A stretch of DNA of 64,000 bases, taken from positions 118,091-182,090 of the forward strand of contig JBAZQK010000001.1 in the NCBI GenBank assembly GCA_041645215.1, in the 5' to 3' direction. Below the pieces are notes generated by a model. That model was not told where the DNA came from and ran no database searches. It worked only from the letters and a program-made list of their open reading frames with translations. The translations under genes were made by a program, and so were the position numbers. Every line of letters starts with the position of its first letter. Within the stretch, counting starts at the first letter, position 1. Source of the stretch: Patescibacteria group bacterium. Lineage in GTDB: Bacteria; Patescibacteriota; Patescibacteriia; Veblenbacterales; UBA10138. Positions 13,733-57,669 of this stretch are shown one piece after another.

Positions 13733-13846
13733 CCCCAGTAGGAACCCAGATAGTAGTCCCGCGGGGCAGGACACTACTGGGCAGGTCGAACCTACATTAC
13801 AAGCTCCGCAAGCTCGCGTTCTCTGCCTGCTGGCAGGTATTCTTCA
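13733..13846 (-). pseudogene. tRNA-Arg-derived partial copy (shares 36 nt anticodon-arm/T-stem segment with tRNA-Arg) with a ~40-nt hairpin inserted in the T-loop; cannot form D-arm
   Basis: GAACGCGAGCTTGCGGAGCTTGTAATGTAGGTTCGA identical to neighbouring tRNA; followed by CCCAGTAGTGTCC..GGGACTACTATCTGGG hairpin. Confidence 0.45.
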
Positions 13847-13858
13847 CCTAACCAAATC

Positions 13859-13930
13859 TGCCCCCGGTAGGAATCGAACCTACATTACAAGCTCCGCAAG
13901 CTCGCGTTCTATCCATTGAACTACGAGGGC
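13859..13930 (-). tRNA. tRNA-Arg (anticodon GCG), no encoded CCA
   Basis: Manual fold: GCCCTCG/CGGGGGC acceptor, D-stem GTTC/GAAC, anticodon loop TTGCGGA, T-arm GTAGG-TTCGATT-CCTAC. Confidence 0.75.
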
Positions 13931-50173: not shown

Positions 50174-50923
50174 ATGGACATAAGAAATATATTAGAAGCC
50201 TTAGGTTTAAATAAAAAGCAAGTAGATATTTATCTTACTTGCCTTGAACATGGGCCCGAAACTATTACAAATATTTCTAAACTGTCAGGCCACAAACGCT
50301 CCACCATTTATAACGTTATAGAGGATTTGCTTAGGGGCGGATTCTTGGTACTTATTCGTAGAAATAAACATACCCTATACGATGCCGAGAAACCCAAGCG
50401 ATTATTGACTATTATTAGAGCTCGTGAGAGAGAATTGGAGCAATTACTTCCGCAGTTAGAAACTATTCGAAATACAAAAAAAGAAATACCAAACATTCAA
50501 ATTCTTGAATCGGAAGTTTCTGTAAAAAACTTATATGATGAAGTGTATTCAAGTTTTAATAATAAAGATGAGGTCTGTTTTTTGAGCGCTGTCGGTGACT
50601 TGTTTAAAAATCTTCCTCTGGTAATGGATGCTTATTTTGCAAAATTTCATAATCGTAAAGATTATAAAATTCGGGAACTAATCTTAAACGACGAGGAGGG
50701 CAGGCGTTATGTTAGATTGTTGCGCCATAAAGGTATCTCGCACCCTGTTAAATTATTGCCAACCGACTTCCCTATTTTTAATGATCTAGTAATCTATGAG
50801 AATAAGGTTCTTATAGCCAGCTTTAAAAATAGGGTTATCGTAACCTTATTTGATAATCCAGAAATTTTTTTAACGCTCAAAACGCTTTTTGAGTGGGCTT
50901 GGCAAAATGGCAAATTGGTTTAA
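50174..50923 (+). CDS. TrmB-family (winged-HTH) transcriptional regulator
   Basis: N-terminus NILEALGLNKKQVDIYLTCLEHGPETITNISKLSGHKRSTIYNVIEDL. Confidence 0.5.
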   Translation: MDIRNILEALGLNKKQVDIYLTCLEHGPETITNISKLSGHKRSTIYNVIEDLLRGGFLVLIRRNKHTLYDAEKPKRLLTIIRARERELEQLLPQLETIRNTKKEIPNIQILESEVSVKNLYDEVYSSFNNKDEVCFLSAVGDLFKNLPLVMDAYFAKFHNRKDYKIRELILNDEEGRRYVRLLRHKGISHPVKLLPTDFPIFNDLVIYENKVLIASFKNRVIVTLFDNPEIFLTLKTLFEWAWQNGKLV

Positions 50924-51160
50924 TATTGCCCTACTAGGACATTATCACGTTGCCGCGACATTGCTGCGACACGGCCTTGACAAATATAGCTAGATGAATT
51001 ATATTATCTTGTTCTTTAACAAAAGTTTATAGTCCTCTGTTGTGGCCATTTTCATACTGGTCAGAACAGAGGGTTGTAAACAATGGGTCTAGTTCAAAAA
51101 ATAAATCATAAACTACAAATAATTCAATAATCAAAAACCAAAAACGAAGGAGGTGTCATT

Positions 51161-51301
51161 ATGACAAGCTGGATAACAATAGGCCAGTACGAATATGAGT
51201 ATAACGAAGCTGGCTACACTGGCTGGTGCCGATGCGTCGGCGGAATGATGGCCAAGGGGAAATGGCCCCAATGGAATTATCTAACCGGCACCACACGTTA
51301 A
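51161..51301 (+). CDS. Small protein (46 aa) with strong SD GAAGGAGGTG, Trp/Cys-rich
   Basis: MTSWITIGQYEYEYNEAGYTGWCRCVGGMMAKGKWPQWNYLTGTTR; SD 7 nt upstream; not in ORF track (<60 aa). Confidence 0.4.
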   Translation: MTSWITIGQYEYEYNEAGYTGWCRCVGGMMAKGKWPQWNYLTGTTR

Positions 51302-51341
51302 CCATTAATCAACAAAAATAAATAACTCATGGGAGGTTACT

Positions 51342-51632
51342 TTGAGTAATAACATCAAAAAAATCAAACGCCACGTCTATTTTAGCGGTAATGTACAGAG
51401 TCTAGAATTTCTGACTCCGGACGGTAAAAAGGCTACCATTGGCGTAATAATGCCAGGCGAATACAATTTCGGCACAGCTAAACAAAAAGAAACAATTTCT
51501 GTCTTGCAGGGTATGGTCTTTACAAAGGAAGGCAGTCTTCGCCCTGGTGGCTATCCAATCGTGTTTGAGCCAGGTACGAAAATTATATTTTCCTGCCCTG
51601 AACCAGTCGCCTATTTATGTCTTTATGGCTAA
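51342..51632 (+). CDS. ppnP: Pyrimidine/purine nucleoside phosphorylase PpnP (YaiE/DUF1255 cupin)
   Basis: HVYFSGNVQSLEF...GVIMPGEYNFGTA...YLCLYG collinear with E. coli YaiE; TTG start with GGGAGG SD. Confidence 0.75.
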   Translation: MSNNIKKIKRHVYFSGNVQSLEFLTPDGKKATIGVIMPGEYNFGTAKQKETISVLQGMVFTKEGSLRPGGYPIVFEPGTKIIFSCPEPVAYLCLYG

Positions 51633-51638
51633 AACTAT

Positions 51639-51676
51639 AAAGAGACGCAAACAAAATTAAAGTGTGTAGGGCAACG
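51639..51676. terminator. Bidirectional terminator between ppnP and convergent small ORF
   Basis: AGTGTGT-agggcaacgccca-ACACACT flanked by A-run/T-run. Confidence 0.6.
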
Positions 51677-51797
51677 CCCAACACACTCTTTTTTTATTAA
51701 AAACTAACACCATCAACTGGCTTATGTTCAAATTAAACTTCCGGCGAATTATTTAATTGTTATTAAATTGTTGACTAGAGCCTTAACAATTAATTTC

Positions 51798-51875
51798 TTA
51801 AGCAGCCGGGGTGGTTGGTTCAACCGGAGGGCAAGTGCATGGCTCATTGTCACATTTCGGGCAAACATCTGTCAT
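51798..51875 (-). CDS. 25-aa Cys-rich peptide with strong SD (AAGGAG, 9-nt spacing)
   Basis: MTDVCPKCDNEPCTCPPVEPTTPAA; four Cys in CxxC...CxC arrangement; not in ORF track. Confidence 0.35.
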   Translation of the reverse strand: MTDVCPKCDNEPCTCPPVEPTTPAA

Positions 51876-51988
51876 ATACCTAGGCTCCTTTCTACCCCGC
51901 GGGTTCTTTATAAAAAAACTTACGAGTTACGTAAATAATTAGCTAGCTAAGAATAGCATATGAGATAAACCCGTTAACTATCAGCAGG

Positions 51989-52228
51989 ATGGTTTCAACG
52001 AAGATGGATTTCTTTTTTCCCTGTCGGAGTTTTACGGTAATGCCATTGGAAATCCAAGTATTTGATACCGCTGGTTTTCTTGCTCGGCAAGAAATAAAGG
52101 ATACTGGCCAGCAAGTAGTGTTTTACAAATTTGCTGGTGGAACAGTCATTGAGCTTGGCGACAACGGCAAATACATAACTGTTGACAGAGACGAATGGCT
52201 CGTTAAGTTTCCACGGACTAGTAACTAA
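51989..52228 (+). CDS. Hypothetical protein
   Basis: 79-aa ORF followed by terminator CCACCttatagttttttcgaGGTGG-TCTTTTTTT (52268-52300). Confidence 0.35.
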   Translation: MVSTKMDFFFPCRSFTVMPLEIQVFDTAGFLARQEIKDTGQQVVFYKFAGGTVIELGDNGKYITVDRDEWLVKFPRTSN

Positions 52229-52437
52229 GAAAGTCTGAAAAAACAAAACTAAGTTATTAATTCAGGGCCACCTTATAGTTTTTTCGAGGTGGTCTTTTTT
52301 TATCAAAAAATCACCCGCATCGGGTGGCTTATGATTTTTACCGTTGCCGGGAACCCCGATAGTAGTCCCGCTAAGCGGGACACTACGGCGCAAGTCAAAC
52401 CCTGGTTTTTATTCATCCACCAAATTAAATATTAGCT

Positions 52438-52512
52438 TGGTAGCCCCTAGGGGAATCGAACCCCTATTACGTCATTGAAAGCGACGTGTCCTAACCATTA
52501 GACGAAGGGGCC
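52438..52512 (-). tRNA. tRNA-Glu (anticodon TTC), CCA encoded
   Basis: Manual fold: 3-bp D-stem GTC/GAC typical of tRNA-Glu, anticodon loop CTTTCAA, T-arm AGGGG-TTCGATT-CCCCT, ...ACCA. Confidence 0.75.
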
Positions 52513-52582
52513 ATAATATTTGGTGGGCGGGTTGGAAAAGCGTGGTGCCTGCCCCGCACCGAGCTCAGCTCTGGTGCTGGGG

Positions 52583-52605
52583 TCCTAACCATTAGACGAT
52601 AGCGG
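52583..52605 (-). repeat. tRNA-Glu 5'-fragment copy B (GCCGCTATCGTCTAATGGTTAGGAC) then unrelated sequence
   Basis: Matches acceptor/D-arm of tRNA-Glu; homology ends inside anticodon stem. Confidence 0.5.
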
Positions 52606-52846
52606 CATGTAGATTATTAAATAACTCAATTCTAGCTTTGGCTGTCTTTTTAAGAAATAGTTCTCTTTTTCTAGCTAACATTCGGTTACTGTAAGCTTCA
52701 GTATATATAACCTTTAGCGGTCTATATGCTTTAGTAGATTTGACCTTACCTTTATTATGCTCTAGCAGCCTTCTTTCAACATTATCCGTACTGCCTATAT
52801 AATGCCAATTTTTCTTATTTCCTAAAAGTACATAAAGATAATACAT
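52592..52846 (-). CDS. GIY-YIG nuclease-superfamily protein, YhbQ/UPF0213-like (84 aa)
   Basis: MYYLYVLLGNKKNWHYIGSTDNVERRLLEHNKGKVKSTKAYRPLKVIYTE... = GIY-YIG core with YIG and Arg/Glu catalytic positions. Confidence 0.7.
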   Translation of the reverse strand: MYYLYVLLGNKKNWHYIGSTDNVERRLLEHNKGKVKSTKAYRPLKVIYTEAYSNRMLARKRELFLKKTAKARIELFNNLHAAIV

Positions 52847-52898
52847 ACTTTAACAAACTATGGTTGTGTCTCCTCCGGAGGAGGACCCGTCTCCGACG

Positions 52899-52920
52899 GG
52901 CTAACCATTAGACGAAGGGG
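52899..52920 (-). repeat. tRNA-Glu 5'-fragment copy A (GGCCCCTTCGTCTAATGGTTAG) followed by hairpins CCCGTCggaGACGGG and TCCTCCTCCGGAGGAGA
   Basis: 22/22 identity to 5' end of tRNA-Glu at 52491-52512. Confidence 0.55.
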
Positions 52921-53034
52921 CCGCGTGTCAAGCGTTGACATTCTAAAATGTAATTGATTCTAAGTCAACCAGTTGGTTAATTGTTGGTAAAATCTTGTCC
53001 AATACAGTAGCCTTGCTATACTGTTTATATAAGT

Positions 53035-53496
53035 ATGTCAGTATTTTCTTTTTTTGTTAAAGCCGATAGTGTGCCCGCCGCCGTCCCTAATCAGACTGTC
53101 GTTAAGGCCGGTAAAATTGCACCAACTGATGCTGAATCAGCCGTGGAGTGGTACTCGGATGAGTATGAAGGGCAGTTATCAGTGGATGTTTTTCAAACGC
53201 CTGATTATGTAGTGGTACGATCCACGATTGCCGGCGTCAGGCCGGAAGATTTGGATATTACTTTGAATAATGATGTTATTACTATCCGCGGCCGGCGTTA
53301 CCAAGAGGCTGAGGTTGCGCCGGAGGATTATTTTTATCAGGAGTGTTACTGGGGCGGTTTTTCGCGCTCCATTGTGCTGCCGGTGGAGGTTGACCCCGAG
53401 AAAGTGGAGGCGAGTTTAAAAAACGGGGTTCTGACAATTAAATTACCAAAAATTAAAACTAAGAGCGTGTCGGTAAAGGTGGAGGTAGAGGAATAA
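53035..53496 (+). CDS. Hsp20/alpha-crystallin-family small heat-shock protein
   Basis: 153 aa; alpha-crystallin domain VDVFQTPDYVVVRSTIAGVRPEDLDITLNNDVITIRGRR...LKNGVLTIKLPK. Confidence 0.75.
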   Translation: MSVFSFFVKADSVPAAVPNQTVVKAGKIAPTDAESAVEWYSDEYEGQLSVDVFQTPDYVVVRSTIAGVRPEDLDITLNNDVITIRGRRYQEAEVAPEDYFYQECYWGGFSRSIVLPVEVDPEKVEASLKNGVLTIKLPKIKTKSVSVKVEVEE

Positions 53497-53501
53497 TAAT
53501 T

Positions 53502-53723
53502 ATGGCTAATACTGTTCAATTAACCCTTGACCGTGTTGAAGGCGACCAGGCAATTTTAGTTTTTAGCGACCACATGCAAATTACGCTCCCGCTATCCTTA
53601 ATGCCTATCGGTACGACGGAAGGCTCGGTAGTTCGTTTGTCTATTGTCAAAGACGCTGACGCGACATTTGACCAGCAAGAGCAAGCTCGGCATTTGCTTA
53701 ACGAAGTCTTAAAGTCTAATTAA
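53502..53723 (+). CDS. Small hypothetical protein (DUF3006-like), translationally coupled to VanW-like gene (TAATG overlap)
   Basis: 73-aa ORF, stop overlaps next start. Confidence 0.35.
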   Translation: MANTVQLTLDRVEGDQAILVFSDHMQITLPLSLMPIGTTEGSVVRLSIVKDADATFDQQEQARHLLNEVLKSN

Positions 53724-55612
53724 TGAGTATACCAAAGCGTTATTTTTCGCCGCGTTGGCTGGGGGTGATTTTTCCCGTAGTTTTTTTGTTGCTACTGGGT
53801 GCCAGTTTATCGATTTATAATTTAGCCTATGCGACTCGAATTTTCCCCGGGGTGGCAATGGGACAAATTAGTTTGGCTGGTTTAACGGCTAGTCAGGCGG
53901 AAAGTAAATTAAGTTCGGTTTGGAATGATTATAGTCAGGCGGGAATAGTTGTAAAATCAGACAAGTATCAGGTTACCGTGCCGGCAGTTTTAAATTCCAC
54001 CAATTCTGATTTAGCCGTTAATTTAATGTATGTTTATTTGGCTCAAGCCGCTACGGCGGCTTATCAGGTTGGGCACAGCGGCGTTTGGTATAATGATTTA
54101 GTTGAGCCGGTGTTAATTAGATTATGGCCGACCTTTGGTCAAATAAAATTGCCGGTTGACATTGATATAAATCGCCTAGTTAAATATATCAGCAGTAGTT
54201 TGCCCGAACTTGGCGCAAAATCAATTCCGGCGCGTTTGCGTTTAAATACCAACGACAAACTGGAAATAATCCCTGAAACTATAGGTAGAGAGATTGATGC
54301 CGTAGATTTAGGAATAAAGTTGCAGGCCAAAATTGAGACCATGTCAGCCGGGGCCATTGAATTAACGTTAAAATCTGAACCAGCCGCCGTGACCGCGCAA
54401 GAGTTAACAGTTTTGTTGCCGGCGGCGCAAGCCGCGTTAAAGCCGGTAAAATTAATTTTTACTTTTGCCGATGCGACTTGGGCAGCTCAACCAAGTGTGT
54501 GGCAGGCTTGGTTGCAGCCAGTGTTGAACCCGGACCAATTGGCGATTAGATTAAGCAGCGAGGCCGCCACTGGATTTTTCAGCGCCATCGGCCAGACAGT
54601 TAATCAGCCGGCGCAGGATGCTAAATTTGAGATTAAAGATGGCCGGGTAGAATTATTTCAAGCCAGCCAAGAAGGTCGGGAGGTTGATATTTCGGCCACC
54701 TTGGCTCAAATCAATGAGAAACTGGCGGCGATAGACAATAATATAACCTGGCCTTTGGTAGTTAAATCAACCCAACCAAATGTAACCACCGCCGAAGTTA
54801 ACAATCTGGGAGTTACTGAAATTATTGGTACCGGTAAGTCTAATTTTGCCGGTAGTCCGCCCAATCGCCGCCATAATATTAAAGTTGGGGCTGATAAGTT
54901 GAACGGCGTAATTATTCAGCCGGATGAAGAATTTTCGCTGGTTAAAACCTTAGGCGCGATTGATGCGGCATCCGGTTATTTGCAGGAATTAGTTATAAAG
55001 GGCAATAAAACTATTCCGGAGTACGGTGGCGGCTTGTGTCAAATTGGCACCACTACTTTTCGGGCGGCTTTAAGTTCAGGGTTGCCGATTTTAGAGCGAC
55101 GCAGCCATTCTTACCGGGTGCCTTATTATGAACCGGCTGGTACTGACGCCACCATTTACGACCCCAGTCCGGATTTTAAGTTTAAGAACGATACCGGCCG
55201 GGCAATTTTGATACAAACTAAAATCAAGGGCGATGAGTTGATATTTGAATTTTGGGGAGCTAAGGACGGGCGGCAGGCGGAGCAGACCAAGCCGCGCATC
55301 TATAATATTGTTAAACCGCCGCCAACTAAAATTATTGAAACAACTGAATTGCCGGTTGGTCAAAAAAAATGCACGGAAAAGGCGCATACGGGAGCGGATG
55401 CCGAATTTAATTACAAAGTTACTTATCCGAGCGGTGAGGTTAAAGATCAAACATTTCGCAGTCATTATGTACCATGGCAGGAGGTTTGTTTGCTGGGGGT
55501 GGCTAAATTAGATTCAAGTGAACAAAATTCAACCAGCGATAGTTCAGCCGCAACTCCGTCCGCCTCGTCCGATTTACCAGCCGCTGATATTTCTGGTCAA
55601 ACCGGAAATTAA
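53723..55612 (+). CDS. VanW-domain protein with N-terminal TM anchor and peptidoglycan-binding-like repeats
   Basis: VanW signature NRRHNIKVGADKLNGVIIQPDEEFSLVKTLG...GGGLCQIGTTTFRAALSSGLPILERRSHSY...DATIYDPSPDFKFKNDTG. Confidence 0.75.
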   Translation: MSIPKRYFSPRWLGVIFPVVFLLLLGASLSIYNLAYATRIFPGVAMGQISLAGLTASQAESKLSSVWNDYSQAGIVVKSDKYQVTVPAVLNSTNSDLAVNLMYVYLAQAATAAYQVGHSGVWYNDLVEPVLIRLWPTFGQIKLPVDIDINRLVKYISSSLPELGAKSIPARLRLNTNDKLEIIPETIGREIDAVDLGIKLQAKIETMSAGAIELTLKSEPAAVTAQELTVLLPAAQAALKPVKLIFTFADATWAAQPSVWQAWLQPVLNPDQLAIRLSSEAATGFFSAIGQTVNQPAQDAKFEIKDGRVELFQASQEGREVDISATLAQINEKLAAIDNNITWPLVVKSTQPNVTTAEVNNLGVTEIIGTGKSNFAGSPPNRRHNIKVGADKLNGVIIQPDEEFSLVKTLGAIDAASGYLQELVIKGNKTIPEYGGGLCQIGTTTFRAALSSGLPILERRSHSYRVPYYEPAGTDATIYDPSPDFKFKNDTGRAILIQTKIKGDELIFEFWGAKDGRQAEQTKPRIYNIVKPPPTKIIETTELPVGQKKCTEKAHTGADAEFNYKVTYPSGEVKDQTFRSHYVPWQEVCLLGVAKLDSSEQNSTSDSSAATPSASSDLPAADISGQTGN

Positions 55613-55619
55613 TTTTAAC

Positions 55620-55743
55620 AGGATTTACGCGTTTGACTTTCGGAAGGTGGTGTTTTTGTAGCCGTCATTCTGACCCGCTTCCGCAACTCCGGCGGACATT
55701 GGGTCAGAATCTCTTGATTCAGTGAAGATAAACCCGTAAGTCC
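55620..55743. repeat. MITE-like element, copy 3: AGGATTTACGCGTTTG ... AAACCCGTAAGTCC; interior ATTCTGACCC...GGGTCAGAAT and CCGCAACTCCGGCGG hairpins
   Basis: Terminal inverted repeat and interior homology (TTCCGCAACTCCGGCGGACATT) to copy 2. Confidence 0.55.
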
Positions 55744-55781
55744 GGAGATTATTAGTCTTTTGGCAATTGATTTGACCAGTT

Positions 55782-56678
55782 ATGATTCAAAATTCAATTC
55801 AACTCCACCCCAATAAAGGGTTGGTGGCTTTAATGTTGGCTGCTCTTTTATACGGTTTATATGGTGTTATTTCAAAAATAGTTGGCATTGATTTTGGTGT
55901 TTTCTTTTTAGGCTGGAGTCGGGGAGTTATTATCGGTCTAGTTGTTCTAATAATTTTTTTTGTACGGCGGCATTGGATAAAGTTACAAACCGGAGATTAC
56001 AAATGGTTCGCCAGCATGAGTGCCGCCGGCGTGATTTCATTTTTGACGATTTTTGTGGCTTTTAATTATATACCAATCGGCACCGCCTTATTTATTTTTT
56101 TCTCAAGTTTAATTATAGCGAGTTACGTAATTGGCTATTGGCTGTTTAGAGAGCAATTAACCGTTAGTAAGTTAGTTCTACTGGGGCTGTCTTTGGCCGG
56201 ACTTATACTGCTTTTTTACGGACGTCTTGATGGTGATAATTGGCAGTTTTTGGCGCTCGCCTGTATTTCCGGGATAAGCGGCGCTATTTGGAATGTATTT
56301 TCTAAAAAAGTTTCGGTTGTTTATCCGCTCAGCGAAATAATTTTAATTGATGCCATAATGGCGATTATTATTTGTTTGCCGCTTTCCTTAGTGTTTAGAG
56401 AGCCAGTCTCATTCTTTAATTTTTTTACGGAATTACCCACCATTGGGCTATTCGCTTTTATAACAATTGGCGCCAATGCTATGACATTTACCGGCTTTAA
56501 AAATCTACCAGCGCAAATTGCCAGTATTATTATGTTATTGGAATTGGTCTATGGCGTTATTTTTGGCTGGTTATTCTTTAAGGAAATTTTATCGCCCCTG
56601 GAAATGGCTGGTGGAATACTGATTATTCTGGCGGTTGTTTTATCCAGTTTAATAGCCAAGGAGCGTGTTAGTATTTAA
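55782..56678 (+). CDS. EamA/DMT-family transporter (10 TM)
   Basis: 298 aa, duplicated 5-TM halves. Confidence 0.55.
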   Translation: MIQNSIQLHPNKGLVALMLAALLYGLYGVISKIVGIDFGVFFLGWSRGVIIGLVVLIIFFVRRHWIKLQTGDYKWFASMSAAGVISFLTIFVAFNYIPIGTALFIFFSSLIIASYVIGYWLFREQLTVSKLVLLGLSLAGLILLFYGRLDGDNWQFLALACISGISGAIWNVFSKKVSVVYPLSEIILIDAIMAIIICLPLSLVFREPVSFFNFFTELPTIGLFAFITIGANAMTFTGFKNLPAQIASIIMLLELVYGVIFGWLFFKEILSPLEMAGGILIILAVVLSSLIAKERVSI

Positions 56679-56845
56679 TAGGACTTACGCGTTTGAGCCA
56701 AGTTCGAGGCAAAACCGAGCATTTGAGCAAGCCGTAGTAAAACTACGGTGAGCGAAAAGCGGAGGTTTTAACGAAGAAATTGGCCAAAGCCGCTTGAGGG
56801 GTCGTCCCTGCGCCCGCCCCTAAAGCGGCAAACCCGTAAGTCCTA
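56679..56845. repeat. MITE-like element, copy 4: TAGGACTTACGCGTTTG ... CAAACCCGTAAGTCCTA with different interior; flanks GTATTTAAT / TTTAAGTCG shared with copy 2
   Basis: 17-bp terminal inverted repeat, 2 mismatches. Confidence 0.55.
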
Positions 56846-57669
56846 TTTAAGTCGTTATAACCCTAAGGACAGGCAGAGTCTTGCCGCCGTCTTGATAAAG
56901 TCCTTGTTAATCATCTTAGGTAGCATTGACTATTTAGCGGGCATCAGGTAAAAAGAGCATATGAAGCTCCCTCCCGATGTACATCGGGACTACGGCGGGT
57001 TATAAAGCCTAACCGCTCGGGCCCCAATCTGGCCGAAGCCTACATACAAAAATGCATATCTCGTCCATTATCCACCCCCGCCTTTGACCCCTACGTTCCC
57101 ATCACCCGCCTTCTTGACATCAAAACCCTCAATAACCGCTTGGGTTGGCGGCGGAGCCCCGCTAAGCGGGGCGGAGGAGAATAAAAATACACCCACAGGG
57201 GGTGGCAAGAAAATCTGCATTAGCATAATTCTAGCCCGCGAACGAGCCGGAAGTAAGCTGATGCACGATTCCCATGCTTGTCGTGCCACCGCTTTTGAGT
57301 GTATTTATAAATACCTAGTTGTTAATCAAGCTCTGGTATTTTACTTGTCCCGCCGATTCGGCGGGGCCTGCCCGCCGTTTGCCTCACCCAATCAACAAAT
57401 CATTGTTTAATTACCGTACTTGTTCATAGCCAGATTATATTTAAAACACTAGCTTTGGCAGGCGGGGCCTGCCCGCCATCAGCCTCTTGCAATCAGCGAA
57501 TCTCCCGCCTGCCTTGTTCAGCCGAGCCGGCGGGATTTTGACAGTTTAAGCCCAAAACAACGTTGCTTTGAGGGATTTGTAATGTTAGGGAGTTTTTATT
57601 TAACTGGCAATCTTAGCACGCGGTATTTTTCTTGTCAAGGGGGGTTTAAGAATGGTAATCTAACCATAT

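Follow-up and report, generated by a model that had tools for sequence, protein, structure and literature searches.

A single-domain GIY-YIG nuclease gene beside a tRNA-Glu gene of a Patescibacteria group bacterium: probable remains of a homing-type cassette family of tRNA genes

Selfish nuclease genes normally hide in introns or inteins and spare the gene that they occupy. The mobile endonuclease ORFs of fungal mitochondria (for example at Allomyces atp6) bring along a replacement piece of the host gene that displaces the resident piece, and GC-rich double hairpins, the mitochondrial double-hairpin elements, accompany such elements. The small GIY-YIG proteins of the UPF0213 (YhbQ) family have, to our knowledge, no assigned biochemical function, and we know of no tRNA linkage for E. 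coli yhbQ or B. subtilis yazA; Slx1, a repair nuclease for branched DNA, depends on its partner Slx4. In phage T4, SegB is a free-standing GIY-YIG homing endonuclease encoded in the tRNA gene cluster, its recognition site includes the conserved T-psi-C stem-loop motif of tRNA genes, and it enters genomes that have no SegB along with the tRNA genes next to it (PMC2330249). GIY-YIG ORFs also occur in non-intron insertions of the rRNA genes of CPR bacteria, insertions that match neither group I nor group II introns (Tsurumaki et al. 2024, PMC11270868); the word tRNA is absent from that paper.

Here we analyse a locus within a 64,000-nt stretch of DNA (the window) from a Patescibacteria group bacterium, in which an 84-aa GIY-YIG gene lies among pieces of tRNA-Glu genes and GC-rich hairpins. 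From sequence comparison we regard it as probably the nested traces left by a selfish, homing-type family of cassettes resident in tRNA genes. Every feature of the locus is on the minus strand, and read along that strand they are:

52940-52968, minus: promoter-like site TTGACT-17-TAGAAT, 17 nt upstream of copy A
52901-52922, minus: copy A, tRNA-Glu(UUC) nt 1-22, 22/22 identical to the resident tRNA
52871-52900, minus: 30-nt double-hairpin module (CCCGTC-GGA-GACGGG + TCCTCC-TCC-GGAGGA) at tRNA nt 22/23
52847-52870, minus: remaining 5' leader up to the ATG, starting with GACAC (tRNA nt 23-27)
52592-52846, minus: 84-aa GIY-YIG gene, catalytic core only, UPF0213/Slx1-like, with a Pfam GIY-YIG match
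52582-52606, minus: copy B, nt 1-25 of an N-type tRNA-Glu(UUC), 25/25
52547-52581, minus: hairpin with CAGG tail inserted after copy B nt 25, classed with the 19-nt 'hairpin+CAGG' modules found at other loci
52537-52546, minus: ACCACGCTTT, N-type tRNA nt 26-35, ending within the anticodon (by eye against relative L079)
52513-52536, minus: left arm of an imperfect inverted repeat around the intact tRNA (TCCAACCCGCCCACCAAATATTAT)
52438-52512, minus: intact tRNA-Glu(UUC), 'X type', set between N-type nt 35 and nt 36
52417-52437, minus: right arm of the same imperfect inverted repeat (AGCTAATATTTAATTTGGTGG)
52395-52416, minus: probable decayed N-type nt ~39-58 (ATGAATAAAAACCAGGGTTTGA; compare ATGTGGGAATCCGGGTTCGA; aligned by eye)
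52354-52394, minus: 41-nt long-hairpin module at nt 58/59, within the T-loop of the decayed N copy
52339-52353, minus: TTCCCGGCAACGGTA, like N-type nt 59-73 (TTCCCGGTAGCGGTA), the probable end of the old gene (by eye)
52302-52326, minus: terminator-like hairpin with T-run, the first such site downstream of the promoter-like site on this strand

The intact tRNA-Glu(UUC) at 52438-52512 (-) is present as a single copy (ARAGORN and Rfam; 62.4 bits, model positions 1-71), and Rfam, scanned over 52200-53100 up to E=10, returned tRNA only, with no Intron_gpI, ribozyme, riboswitch or known small RNA. A split or permuted tRNA, or one whose intron carries an ORF, is ruled out by this complete canonical tRNA-Glu downstream. 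An earlier note on this DNA had described two partial copies of the first 22-25 nt of the tRNA, flanking the nuclease ORF on the same strand. Both copies are real, as the 15-mer TCGTCTAATGGTTAG occurs three times in the window against 0.14 expected and none of 100 shuffles reached three, but only copy A has its origin and length as described. Copy B shares nt 8-25 alone with the resident tRNA (18/18), its first seven nt reading GCCGCTA against GGCCCCT, and it continues past nt 25, resuming with nt 26-35 after a hairpin insert of 34-35 nt. Its match is to the N type, which mismatches the X type at 17 of 75 positions and is intact in two relatives (L079 and L080) at the same HSP20-adjacent locus. 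On this alignment copy B is the 5' part of an older allele of the locus and does not derive from the resident tRNA. In a further relative, L078, the counterpart of the right inverted-repeat arm is AGCCAATATTTAATTGGCGGGCGGG, followed by N-type nt 37-72 at 36/36. By the same comparison the present X-type tRNA sits between the halves of the older N-type gene, in its anticodon, and at least two events have left nested remains at the locus. The earlier proposal that each event simply rebuilt the tRNA 5' end does not hold: what we find instead is one complete tRNA and, next to it, pieces of an older gene that hairpins interrupt. The exact X-type tRNA had no match in the metagenome scan.

The ORF does lie between the two copies on their strand, but copy B overlaps its 3' end: the last five codons with the stop (GCC GCT ATC GTC TAA) are tRNA nt 1-15, and the stop codon falls in D-loop sequence. 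Residues 1-71 align with positions 1-74 of the 78 of Pfam PF01541 (E=1.6e-14, 54.4 bits against a cut-off of 22.6). Among 47 homologues Y5, Y16, G18 and R26 are invariant and H30, N31 and E62 are at least 90% conserved, positions that we take to correspond to the I-TevI residues (the two GIY/YIG tyrosines, the arginine, the histidine and the metal-binding glutamate). The closest solved structures are EF2693 (1YWL, E=4.7e-7) and BH0048 (1ZG2, E=1.9e-4), both over residues 2-74, with Slx1 next, and by both size (~80-110 aa) and sequence kinship the 84-aa ORF belongs with the UPF0213/YhbQ-like single-domain proteins. NCBIfam held no specific family model for the ORF, its TIGR01453 giving a weak match (E=3.6e-4, 20.6 bits against a cut-off of 56) that we attribute to the shared domain; PHROGs gave no match, and phage records yielded weak homologues alone (33-41% identity). 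No separate DNA-binding or specificity domain is present, the Pfam domain filling residues 1-71 of 84, and the C-terminal tail is read-through into tRNA sequence that varies with the tRNA reading frame. Such a catalytic core has no obvious means of reading sequence. The dN/dS of 0.07-0.15 indicates that the nuclease gene is under purifying selection, and this strong constraint speaks for an alternative reading in which the gene forms a domesticated operon with tRNA-Glu, serving a host function tied to that tRNA (tRNA gene maintenance or nucleic-acid processing), the fragments being inert by-products of old tandem duplication.

The locus was aligned with a relative lacking the insertion, as the earlier note had recommended: L078, with flanks 99.3% identical, lacks exactly the 410 bp between the 22-nt direct repeats, of which copy A is the left member, and the same promoter-like site and 17-nt leader directly abut its intact tRNA. 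The cassette is present in the window and in three other assemblies (L076, L077 and L001), and at this site the window, L076 and L077 are occupied and L078 is empty, with flanks 99.3-100% identical. Presence and absence among near-identical haplotypes tell against a domesticated operon. A deletion between the 22-nt repeats explains the 410-bp polymorphism equally well; more than a single step separates L078 from the window, since they also differ 3' of the tRNA. A reading of L001 as a recombinant, CUC upstream and UUC downstream, was set aside, as it comes from the sample of L078, carries a second cassette copy and may be an assembly chimera. The 410-bp insert also bears on more conventional explanations. 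tRNA genes are classic integration sites and group I introns often encode GIY-YIG enzymes, which would suit an integrase-type island with attL and attR or a group I intron with its homing endonuclease, but the insert holds one 84-aa ORF and no integrase, and it duplicates the 5' 22 nt of the tRNA, not the 3' part. Chance or assembly error fares no better, the repeat being far above chance and the arrangement recurring in independent assemblies. We give next to no credence to this group of explanations, which the results refute.

Comparison with a Kerfeldbacteria genome (GCA_016234305.1, locus L005) dates the cassette relative to its hosts. For this one genome pair the cassette has a dS of 0.40 (89% nucleotide identity, with hairpins and leader identical at 53 of 54 positions), against 1.77 for HSP20, 1.60 for a VanW-like gene and saturation for DUF3006. 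In GCA_016234305.1 the cassette occupies a tRNA-Glu(CUC)/Mur-ligase locus, and the HSP20-adjacent tRNA-Glu(UUC) is cassette-free. As read from these distances and positions, the comparison shows that the cassette has recently moved horizontally, from lineage to lineage and from one tRNA-Glu locus to another. Two marks of a free-standing homing endonuclease, polymorphic presence and an element younger than the split of its hosts, are thus found here, and the mobile nuclease cassette of which the earlier note saw the footprint is borne out by the 410 bp missing from L078, by the dS of 0.40 against at least 1.6 and by the nested remains of at least two events. A cassette far younger than the divergence of its hosts, and at different loci, again argues against domestication. 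Stable synteny at L005 and L006 argues for it and counts against a homing cassette: these loci share their gene order though their nucleases are just 70% identical, which looks like long vertical residence and requires that the 22-nt fragment track the local tRNA by gene conversion, selection or repeated re-invasion.

The linkage of the small GIY-YIG family to tRNA genes, which the earlier note had offered as an alternative, extends well beyond this genome. A same-strand tRNA adjoins the ORF in 44 of 71 homologue loci, in 41 at no more than 90 nt. In 31 loci it lies downstream, starting at most 35 nt past or at most 25 nt before the ORF stop (the script cut-off left out L018, whose ORF runs 47 nt into the tRNA), and in 15 upstream, 12 of them within 90 nt and three at 160-185 nt. 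On the far side of the ORF most loci inspected have a hairpin-interrupted partial copy of the cognate tRNA. In L008 and L017 the ORF and its tRNA sit between the 5' and 3' parts of a broken tRNA gene that is unlike the intact one; elsewhere the intact tRNA is frequently identical to the broken copy and would then be expected to be a target as well, which counts against a homing nuclease. The same architecture is found with many types of tRNA, both in CPR bacteria and in bacteria outside the CPR, and some loci lie inside rRNA genes (L064 in 16S; L034, L060 and L053 in 23S). We found no description in the literature that links GIY-YIG genes with tRNA fragments, and this recurring nuclease-tRNA layout across bacteria is apparently undescribed. 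The tight packing of the ORF on the tRNA, with the stop codon often inside the tRNA, would fit a domesticated operon, but the occupation of many tRNA types and of rRNA genes, and resident genes that are broken with foreign alleles in their place, do not, and we hold domestication to be improbable.

Interrupted tRNA copies are split by GC-rich hairpin modules. One of these, the 30-nt double hairpin directly 3' of copy A, is absent from the earlier note; it is common to the homologues with compensatory stem changes, and zero broken pairs were seen among the hairpins compared. Module lengths are fixed (30, 19, 20 and 41 nt), and the modules sit in the broken tRNA copies at nt 22/23, at anticodon 35/36 and at T-loop 58/59, the copies being otherwise co-linear, with no tRNA bases lost or duplicated. 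Elsewhere in the window, near 13749-13777, a tRNA-Arg pseudo-copy has a second 41-nt module in its T-loop, at the matching position; the two are alike at 33 of 41 positions by eye, and the core of the tRNA-Arg copy fits the search pattern exactly. Since the 19-nt module occurs in both orientations, insertion at the DNA level is indicated. A guide-RNA role of the pseudo-tRNA leader found no support, and the two orientations argue against it.

These properties invite a reading in which the hairpin modules are the true mobile DNA (REP- or MITE-like) and the GIY-YIG protein a structure-specific nuclease acting in trans, as RAYT does for REPs and TnpA for IS200/IS605. Where DNA forms stem-loops, as tRNA genes do, this nuclease would place modules in the loops, either alone or carrying an ORF or a tRNA as cargo. 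Fixed lengths, precise insertion free of target duplication or loss, both orientations of the 19-nt module and the repeated use of one T-loop position by the 41-nt module in two pseudo-copies all fit this reading, as do hairpin-interrupted tRNA copies without an ORF (the tRNA-Arg of the window, and L070), the ~10-fold enrichment of hairpins near homologue ORFs, the placing of the intact tRNA between inverted-repeat arms and the presence of the structure-specific Slx1 among the closest solved relatives. In a sister subfamily, moreover, inverted repeats of 11-14 bp (CCCCCACACCT...AGGTGTGGGGG) enclose the ORF, and ORF-less hairpin versions lie nearby. Against it, we know of no GIY-YIG transposase, similar GC hairpins stand at other intergenic sites of the window and are perhaps simple terminators, and the hairpins could have been selected afterwards as homology breakers; the evidence that ties this protein to hairpin movement is indirect. 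We consider it rather unlikely that the modules are the primary mobile unit.

We therefore favour a homing-type cassette, which consists of an 84-codon core-only GIY-YIG gene set against an intact tRNA, with a partial copy of the same tRNA on the opposite side. Transcription reading through from the promoter-like site of the tRNA would yield the nuclease, a proposal that builds on the position of this site 17 nt before copy A and on the lack of any terminator-like site before 52326; another promoter-like match falls within the ORF itself and makes co-transcription less than certain. The nuclease would break cassette-free tRNA genes, its target probably being DNA structure or conserved loop motifs because a separate DNA-binding domain is missing, and the break would be repaired from a cassette-bearing copy with tRNA sequence as homology arm. 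That the nuclease itself drives insertion is our inference. The host would retain one working tRNA, often a foreign allele arriving with the cassette, and the resident gene would be left in pieces. The hairpin modules may leave no stretch of tRNA repeat long enough to recombine or be cut again, and for that reason cassettes that carry them would persist. In the window, an X-type tRNA-Glu may first have been placed in the anticodon of the native N-type gene, with the nuclease cassette now on its 5' side, although the order of events cannot be fixed uniquely. A bolder extension, doubtful but arguable, is that core-only GIY-YIG nucleases constitute an unrecognised class of mobile DNA, reading the stem-loops of tRNA and rRNA genes and their own GC hairpins in place of sequence, inserting hairpin-bounded modules precisely into loops, and retained by a tRNA-based addiction in which the resident tRNA is broken and the element carries the sole working replacement.

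Such a cassette family would account for isolated pieces of tRNA, and for small 'GIY-YIG family protein' genes, found by tRNAs in many metagenome-assembled genomes, would give a route for the exchange of tRNA alleles between lineages, and would be a source of assembly breaks and annotation errors. How an 84-aa nuclease without a recognition domain finds its target (structure, loop motifs or hairpin modules) is directly testable and may serve biotechnology.

Compared with the systems described so far, the cassette resembles SegB in placing a GIY-YIG gene among tRNA genes. SegB is a phage gene and the cassette ORF is on a bacterial chromosome; SegB has ~220 aa with a DNA-binding part, against the 84-aa core here, similarity is confined to the shared domain, and the partial tRNA duplicates and hairpin modules of the cassette have no counterpart in the T4 system. 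With UPF0213/YhbQ the ORF shares the size class and the conserved Tyr, Tyr, Arg, His and Glu. The ORFs of the CPR rRNA insertions are of the same protein family and likewise have CPR hosts, but they lie inside the RNA gene, whereas the cassette gene lies beside a working one and, unlike those insertions, comes with a broken duplicate and hairpin modules. REP/RAYT and IS200/IS605 elements share with the cassette short palindromic modules and precise insertion without target-site duplication, and with one cassette subfamily a nuclease gene flanked by hairpins; they use HUH/Y1 transposases and have no tRNA specialisation, whereas the sole cassette protein is a GIY-YIG nuclease. As in elements of the Allomyces atp6 type, the host gene is kept working by a foreign copy and a resident pseudo-fragment stays behind, but those elements target organellar protein-coding genes with longer ORFs fused in frame, and we know of no evidence for homology with the cassette. 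Set beside intron- and intein-borne nuclease genes, the cassette family appears to be another solution, suited to genes too small for introns, in which the resident tRNA is broken and a whole working copy is kept beside the nuclease.

A hairpin-interrupted pseudo-tRNA, a nuclease gene and an intact tRNA gene form a compact unit that is polymorphic, horizontally transferred, under selection and specialised on tRNA genes. In the window, which holds four tRNA genes, this cassette lies at tRNA-Glu (L-numbers below denote loci of homologues or relatives):

52438-52512, minus strand: intact tRNA-Glu(UUC), the X-type allele, 62.4 bits against the Rfam tRNA model
52582-52606, minus strand: copy B, a partial tRNA copy common to the resident tRNA only at nt 8-25
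52592-52846, minus strand: GIY-YIG ORF, 84 aa, between copies A and B
52901-52922, minus strand: copy A, 22/22 to tRNA nt 1-22

The two partial 5' copies upstream of the tRNA and the same-strand GIY-YIG ORF between them, as the earlier note had described, were recovered, and the copies are not chance matches: the 64 kb contain three copies of the 15-mer TCGTCTAATGGTTAG (tRNA nt 8-22) versus 0.14 expected, a count attained in 0/100 shuffles, and a repeat finder recovers the identical three copies in register. The claim that both copies repeat the resident 5' end is true of copy A but not of copy B, which begins GCCGCTA versus GGCCCCT in the resident tRNA, differing within nt 1-7, and belongs to the older N-type allele considered below. 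The ORF ends within copy B, whose first 15 nt supply its last five codons and its stop. Two perfect 15-nt hairpins lie directly 3' of copy A, and a sigma-70-like site (TTGACT-17-TAGAAT) is found 17 nt upstream of it, with no terminator-like site downstream of this promoter-like site before 52326. There is a second promoter-like match inside the ORF (52781-52808, minus strand, TTGGCA-16-GATAAT, 10/12), from which the tRNA could be transcribed independently of the upstream site.

The ORF matches nearly the entire Pfam GIY-YIG domain (E=1.6e-14), and among solved structures it is closest to the single-domain UPF0213 proteins EF2693 and BH0048 and next-closest to the Slx1 nuclease domain; neither a PHROG family nor a specific NCBIfam model matched it. 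Y5, Y16, G18 and R26 are invariant in 47 homologues and H30, N31 and E62 nearly so, and dN/dS is 0.07-0.15 versus the closest cassettes, indicating that selection preserves the gene. The C-terminal tails of homologues vary (HAAIV, PPSSSG, MPLSSSG, NDGPIV), being tRNA 5' ends translated in differing frames.

An exact-protein look-up placed tRNA-Glu directly 3' of the ORF in 4/4 closest homologues, and a scan of species-representative genomes yielded 71 homologue loci, which we classed by script on ARAGORN tRNA calls. Type i, in which a tRNA on the ORF strand begins ≤35 nt past the ORF stop or ≤25 nt ahead of it, comprises 31 loci (L018, whose ORF extends 47 nt into tRNA-Glu(CUC), falls outside this cut-off and would be the 32nd), while type ii, with a tRNA upstream of the ORF ATG, comprises 15 (12 with the tRNA ≤90 nt away, three at 160-185 nt). 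As 44/71 loci belong to one or both types, the suggested linkage of the small GIY-YIG family to tRNA genes is borne out. Every one of the nearest ~25 homologues occupies a tRNA-Glu locus (UUC or CUC), and remoter ones occur at Gln, Asp, Cys, Ser, Ala, Arg, His, Thr, Lys, Asn and Trp tRNAs; the hosts are mostly CPR/Patescibacteria, but also Ignavibacteriaceae, Balneolaceae, Pirellulales and Armatimonadota. The stop codon falls within the D-loop sequence of the tRNA in roughly half of type i loci. A single Liptonbacteria assembly (L014, L018) carries the cassette at both tRNA-Glu isoacceptor genes, UUC and CUC, versus CUC only in a Kerfeldbacteria genome. A sister subfamily with C-termini ending in SLQ (L024-L028, L030, L035, L037, L041-L044, L047, L048, L051) lacks an adjacent tRNA; its ORF is bounded by 11-14 bp inverted repeats (CCCCCACACCT...AGGTGTGGGGG), and ORF-less hairpin versions lie directly beside some of these ORFs (L037, L041, L047). 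At L075, a group I intron (Rfam RF00028) precedes the ORF, which is flanked by a repeated tRNA-like 3' end where ARAGORN called no tRNA.

When the intact tRNA of type i loci was aligned to the region before the ORF, with long inserts allowed, this region proved to repeat that tRNA co-linearly, beginning at nt 1 and ending at about nt 40-58, with discrete modules breaking it up:

30-nt pair of 15-nt hairpins: at tRNA nt 35/36, inside the anticodon, in at least 8 loci
30-nt pair of 15-nt hairpins: at tRNA nt 22/23, in the window, L003, L005 (Kerfeldbacteria cassette), L006 and L016
19-nt hairpin plus CAGG: at various D-arm positions, in either orientation (TCCGCCAGAGGCGGACAGG in L022, its exact reverse complement in L019)
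20-nt palindrome CCTGCCTGCCGGCAGGCAGG: in the D-arm

At tRNA-Gln loci a hairpin replaces the entire anticodon arm and the copy continues into the T-loop before the ATG. Type ii is the mirror image, with the intact tRNA followed by the ORF and then by a tRNA copy from the D-loop to the 3' end (25/25 to the tRNA 3' end in L065 and L073) in which a hairpin replaces the anticodon arm; in several such loci the intact tRNA is additionally preceded by a 5' copy that a hairpin interrupts. In some type i loci a 3' tRNA remainder follows the intact tRNA, again split by the hairpin pair at 35/36 (38/38 match in L019 and L021), and in L008 and L017 the broken gene is unlike the intact one, the broken resident gene bracketing the ORF-tRNA pair. 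Downstream of the intact tRNA, L021 (1818-1990) and L019 (1834-1990) carry a tandem array whose unit consists of flank, tRNA nt 20-35, the hairpin pair and nt 36-73.

Perfect 6+3+6 GC hairpins occur at 1.66/kb within -250/+350 nt of the ORFs versus 0.17/kb elsewhere in the loci (~10x), and among the closest five double-hairpin sequences four stem pairs have changed on both sides and none is broken. Across loci, loop 1 is purine-rich (GGA, AGA, AAA) and loop 2 pyrimidine-rich (TCC, TCT, TTC), so that the 30-mer reads alike on both strands; this symmetry and the occurrence of the 19-mer in both orientations point to a function at the level of DNA. Elsewhere in the window, non-coding 56700-57560 is dense in GC-rich hairpins and repeats (GCCCCGCTAAGCGGGGC at 57156; GGCGGGGCCTGCCCGCC at 57360 and 57461), and similar TCCNCC-loop-GGNGGA hairpins occur at 2495, 5050, 15692, 34259 and 45076.

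The origin of copy B emerged from relatives anchored by the divergent neighbour gene HSP20. L079 (Kerfeldbacteria GCA_016234305.1) and L080, with HSP20 67-69% identical, have at the same position a cassette-free tRNA-Glu(UUC), the N type, which begins GCCGCTA, has the anticodon stem CCACG/TGTGG and differs from X at 17/75 positions. Copy B is N nt 1-25 (25/25), followed by a 34-35 nt hairpin with a CAGG tail and N nt 26-35, after which come, in strand order (the last three assigned by eye):

(1) an inverted-repeat arm
(2) the intact X tRNA
(3) the other inverted-repeat arm
(4) decayed N nt ~39-58
(5) a 41-nt long-hairpin module
(6) TTCCCGGCAACGGTA, resembling N nt 59-73

With N pieces on both sides, X sits within the anticodon of an older N gene. 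The 41-nt module has exactly two copies in the window versus 0 expected (core GTAGTGTCCNGC...GCGGGACTACTATC, 13749-13777 and 52358-52386, same orientation), both at T-loop 58/59 of dead tRNA copies (Arg, Glu), and its core is also present in L001, L076 and L078. The Arg copy belongs to an ORF-less case:

13735-13930, minus strand: tRNA-Arg(GCG) composite of the same architecture, with a partial tRNA-Arg copy just 3' of the intact tRNA-Arg (13859-13930)

Here the intact tRNA is followed by 21 nt, the hairpin CCTGCCAGCAGGCAG, a 37/37 copy of nt ~21-58, the 41-nt module in the T-loop and nt 59-72 (13/14).

HSP20 is 100% identical in four assemblies. L076 and L077 carry the cassette at 99.4-100% identity, and L078 is 99.3% identical over 52901-55996 and then jumps straight to 52512 downwards, so that the intact tRNA directly follows the identical promoter and its 17-nt leader, and the stretch of 410 bp separating the 22-nt repeats is missing. 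Alignment to this cassette-free relative can be read as either insertion via homologous repair or deletion between the 22-nt repeats; downstream of X, L078 keeps N nt 37-72 (36/36), and the haplotypes thus differ there too and are more than one step apart. A second haplotype difference beside the cassette is a ~1.43-kb segment (50920-52350; small ORFs 51342-51632 and 51989-52228), replaced by ~214 nt in L076 and absent from L001. In L001 (1-217), a contig from the same sample as L078 that may be a chimera, a second, partial GIY-YIG copy, 93.8% identical to the window ORF at nt level, precedes the first by ~420 nt; several GC hairpins follow it, but no tRNA does.

Stronger evidence of mobility than this presence/absence polymorphism came from the Kerfeldbacteria cassette, which lies at a tRNA-Glu(CUC)/Mur-ligase locus, where a perfect 22-nt repeat of this tRNA flanks it; the tRNA-Glu(UUC) locus of that genome is cassette-free.

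Divergence between the window and Kerfeldbacteria GCA_016234305.1 (one genome pair)
Nuclease gene: dS 0.40, 89% nt identity
Hairpins and leader: dS not applicable, 53/54 nt
HSP20: dS 1.77, 68% nt identity
VanW-like: dS 1.60, 57% nt identity
DUF3006: dS saturated, 47% nt identity

The low dS of the cassette and its different locus indicate that it moved between lineages and loci long after the genomes diverged. The 22-nt fragment is identical to the local tRNA even where nuclease genes are synonymously saturated.

We envisage that read-through from the tRNA promoter-like site would express the nuclease, which would break cassette-free tRNA genes, and that repair of the break would copy the cassette-bearing allele, the tRNA sequence serving as homology arm. 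The host would survive through the intact tRNA that accompanies the nuclease. Since the protein is a catalytic core alone, structure or conserved loop motifs are its expected recognition target; in phage T4, the GIY-YIG homing enzyme SegB, whose gene lies in a tRNA cluster, recognises the T-psi-C motif (PMC2330249). The hairpins may divide the direct repeats into segments of ≤22 nt and limit the recombination that deletes the cassette (L078 may be a case of such deletion), or may destroy the target site in the dead copy. Alternatively, the modules may themselves be recognised or mobile, the GIY-YIG protein acting as a nuclease in trans. With the stop codon inside the tRNA, RNase P cleavage would yield a non-stop message and presumably a low nuclease level.

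In our literature search, no paper was found that ties tRNA fragments, or tRNA copies interrupted by hairpins, to small GIY-YIG genes. Nearest is a survey of CPR rRNA insertion sequences, which describes GIY-YIG ORFs in insertions other than introns and says nothing of tRNA (PMC11270868); four homologue loci here are such insertions, in 16S (L064) and 23S (L034, L060, L053) genes, with extended stems enclosing the homologues in L034 and L064. We classify the window cassette as a putative variant of the free-standing homing-type nuclease cassette, and there is a real chance that hairpin modules with a minimal nuclease constitute a new class of structure-guided mobile DNA.
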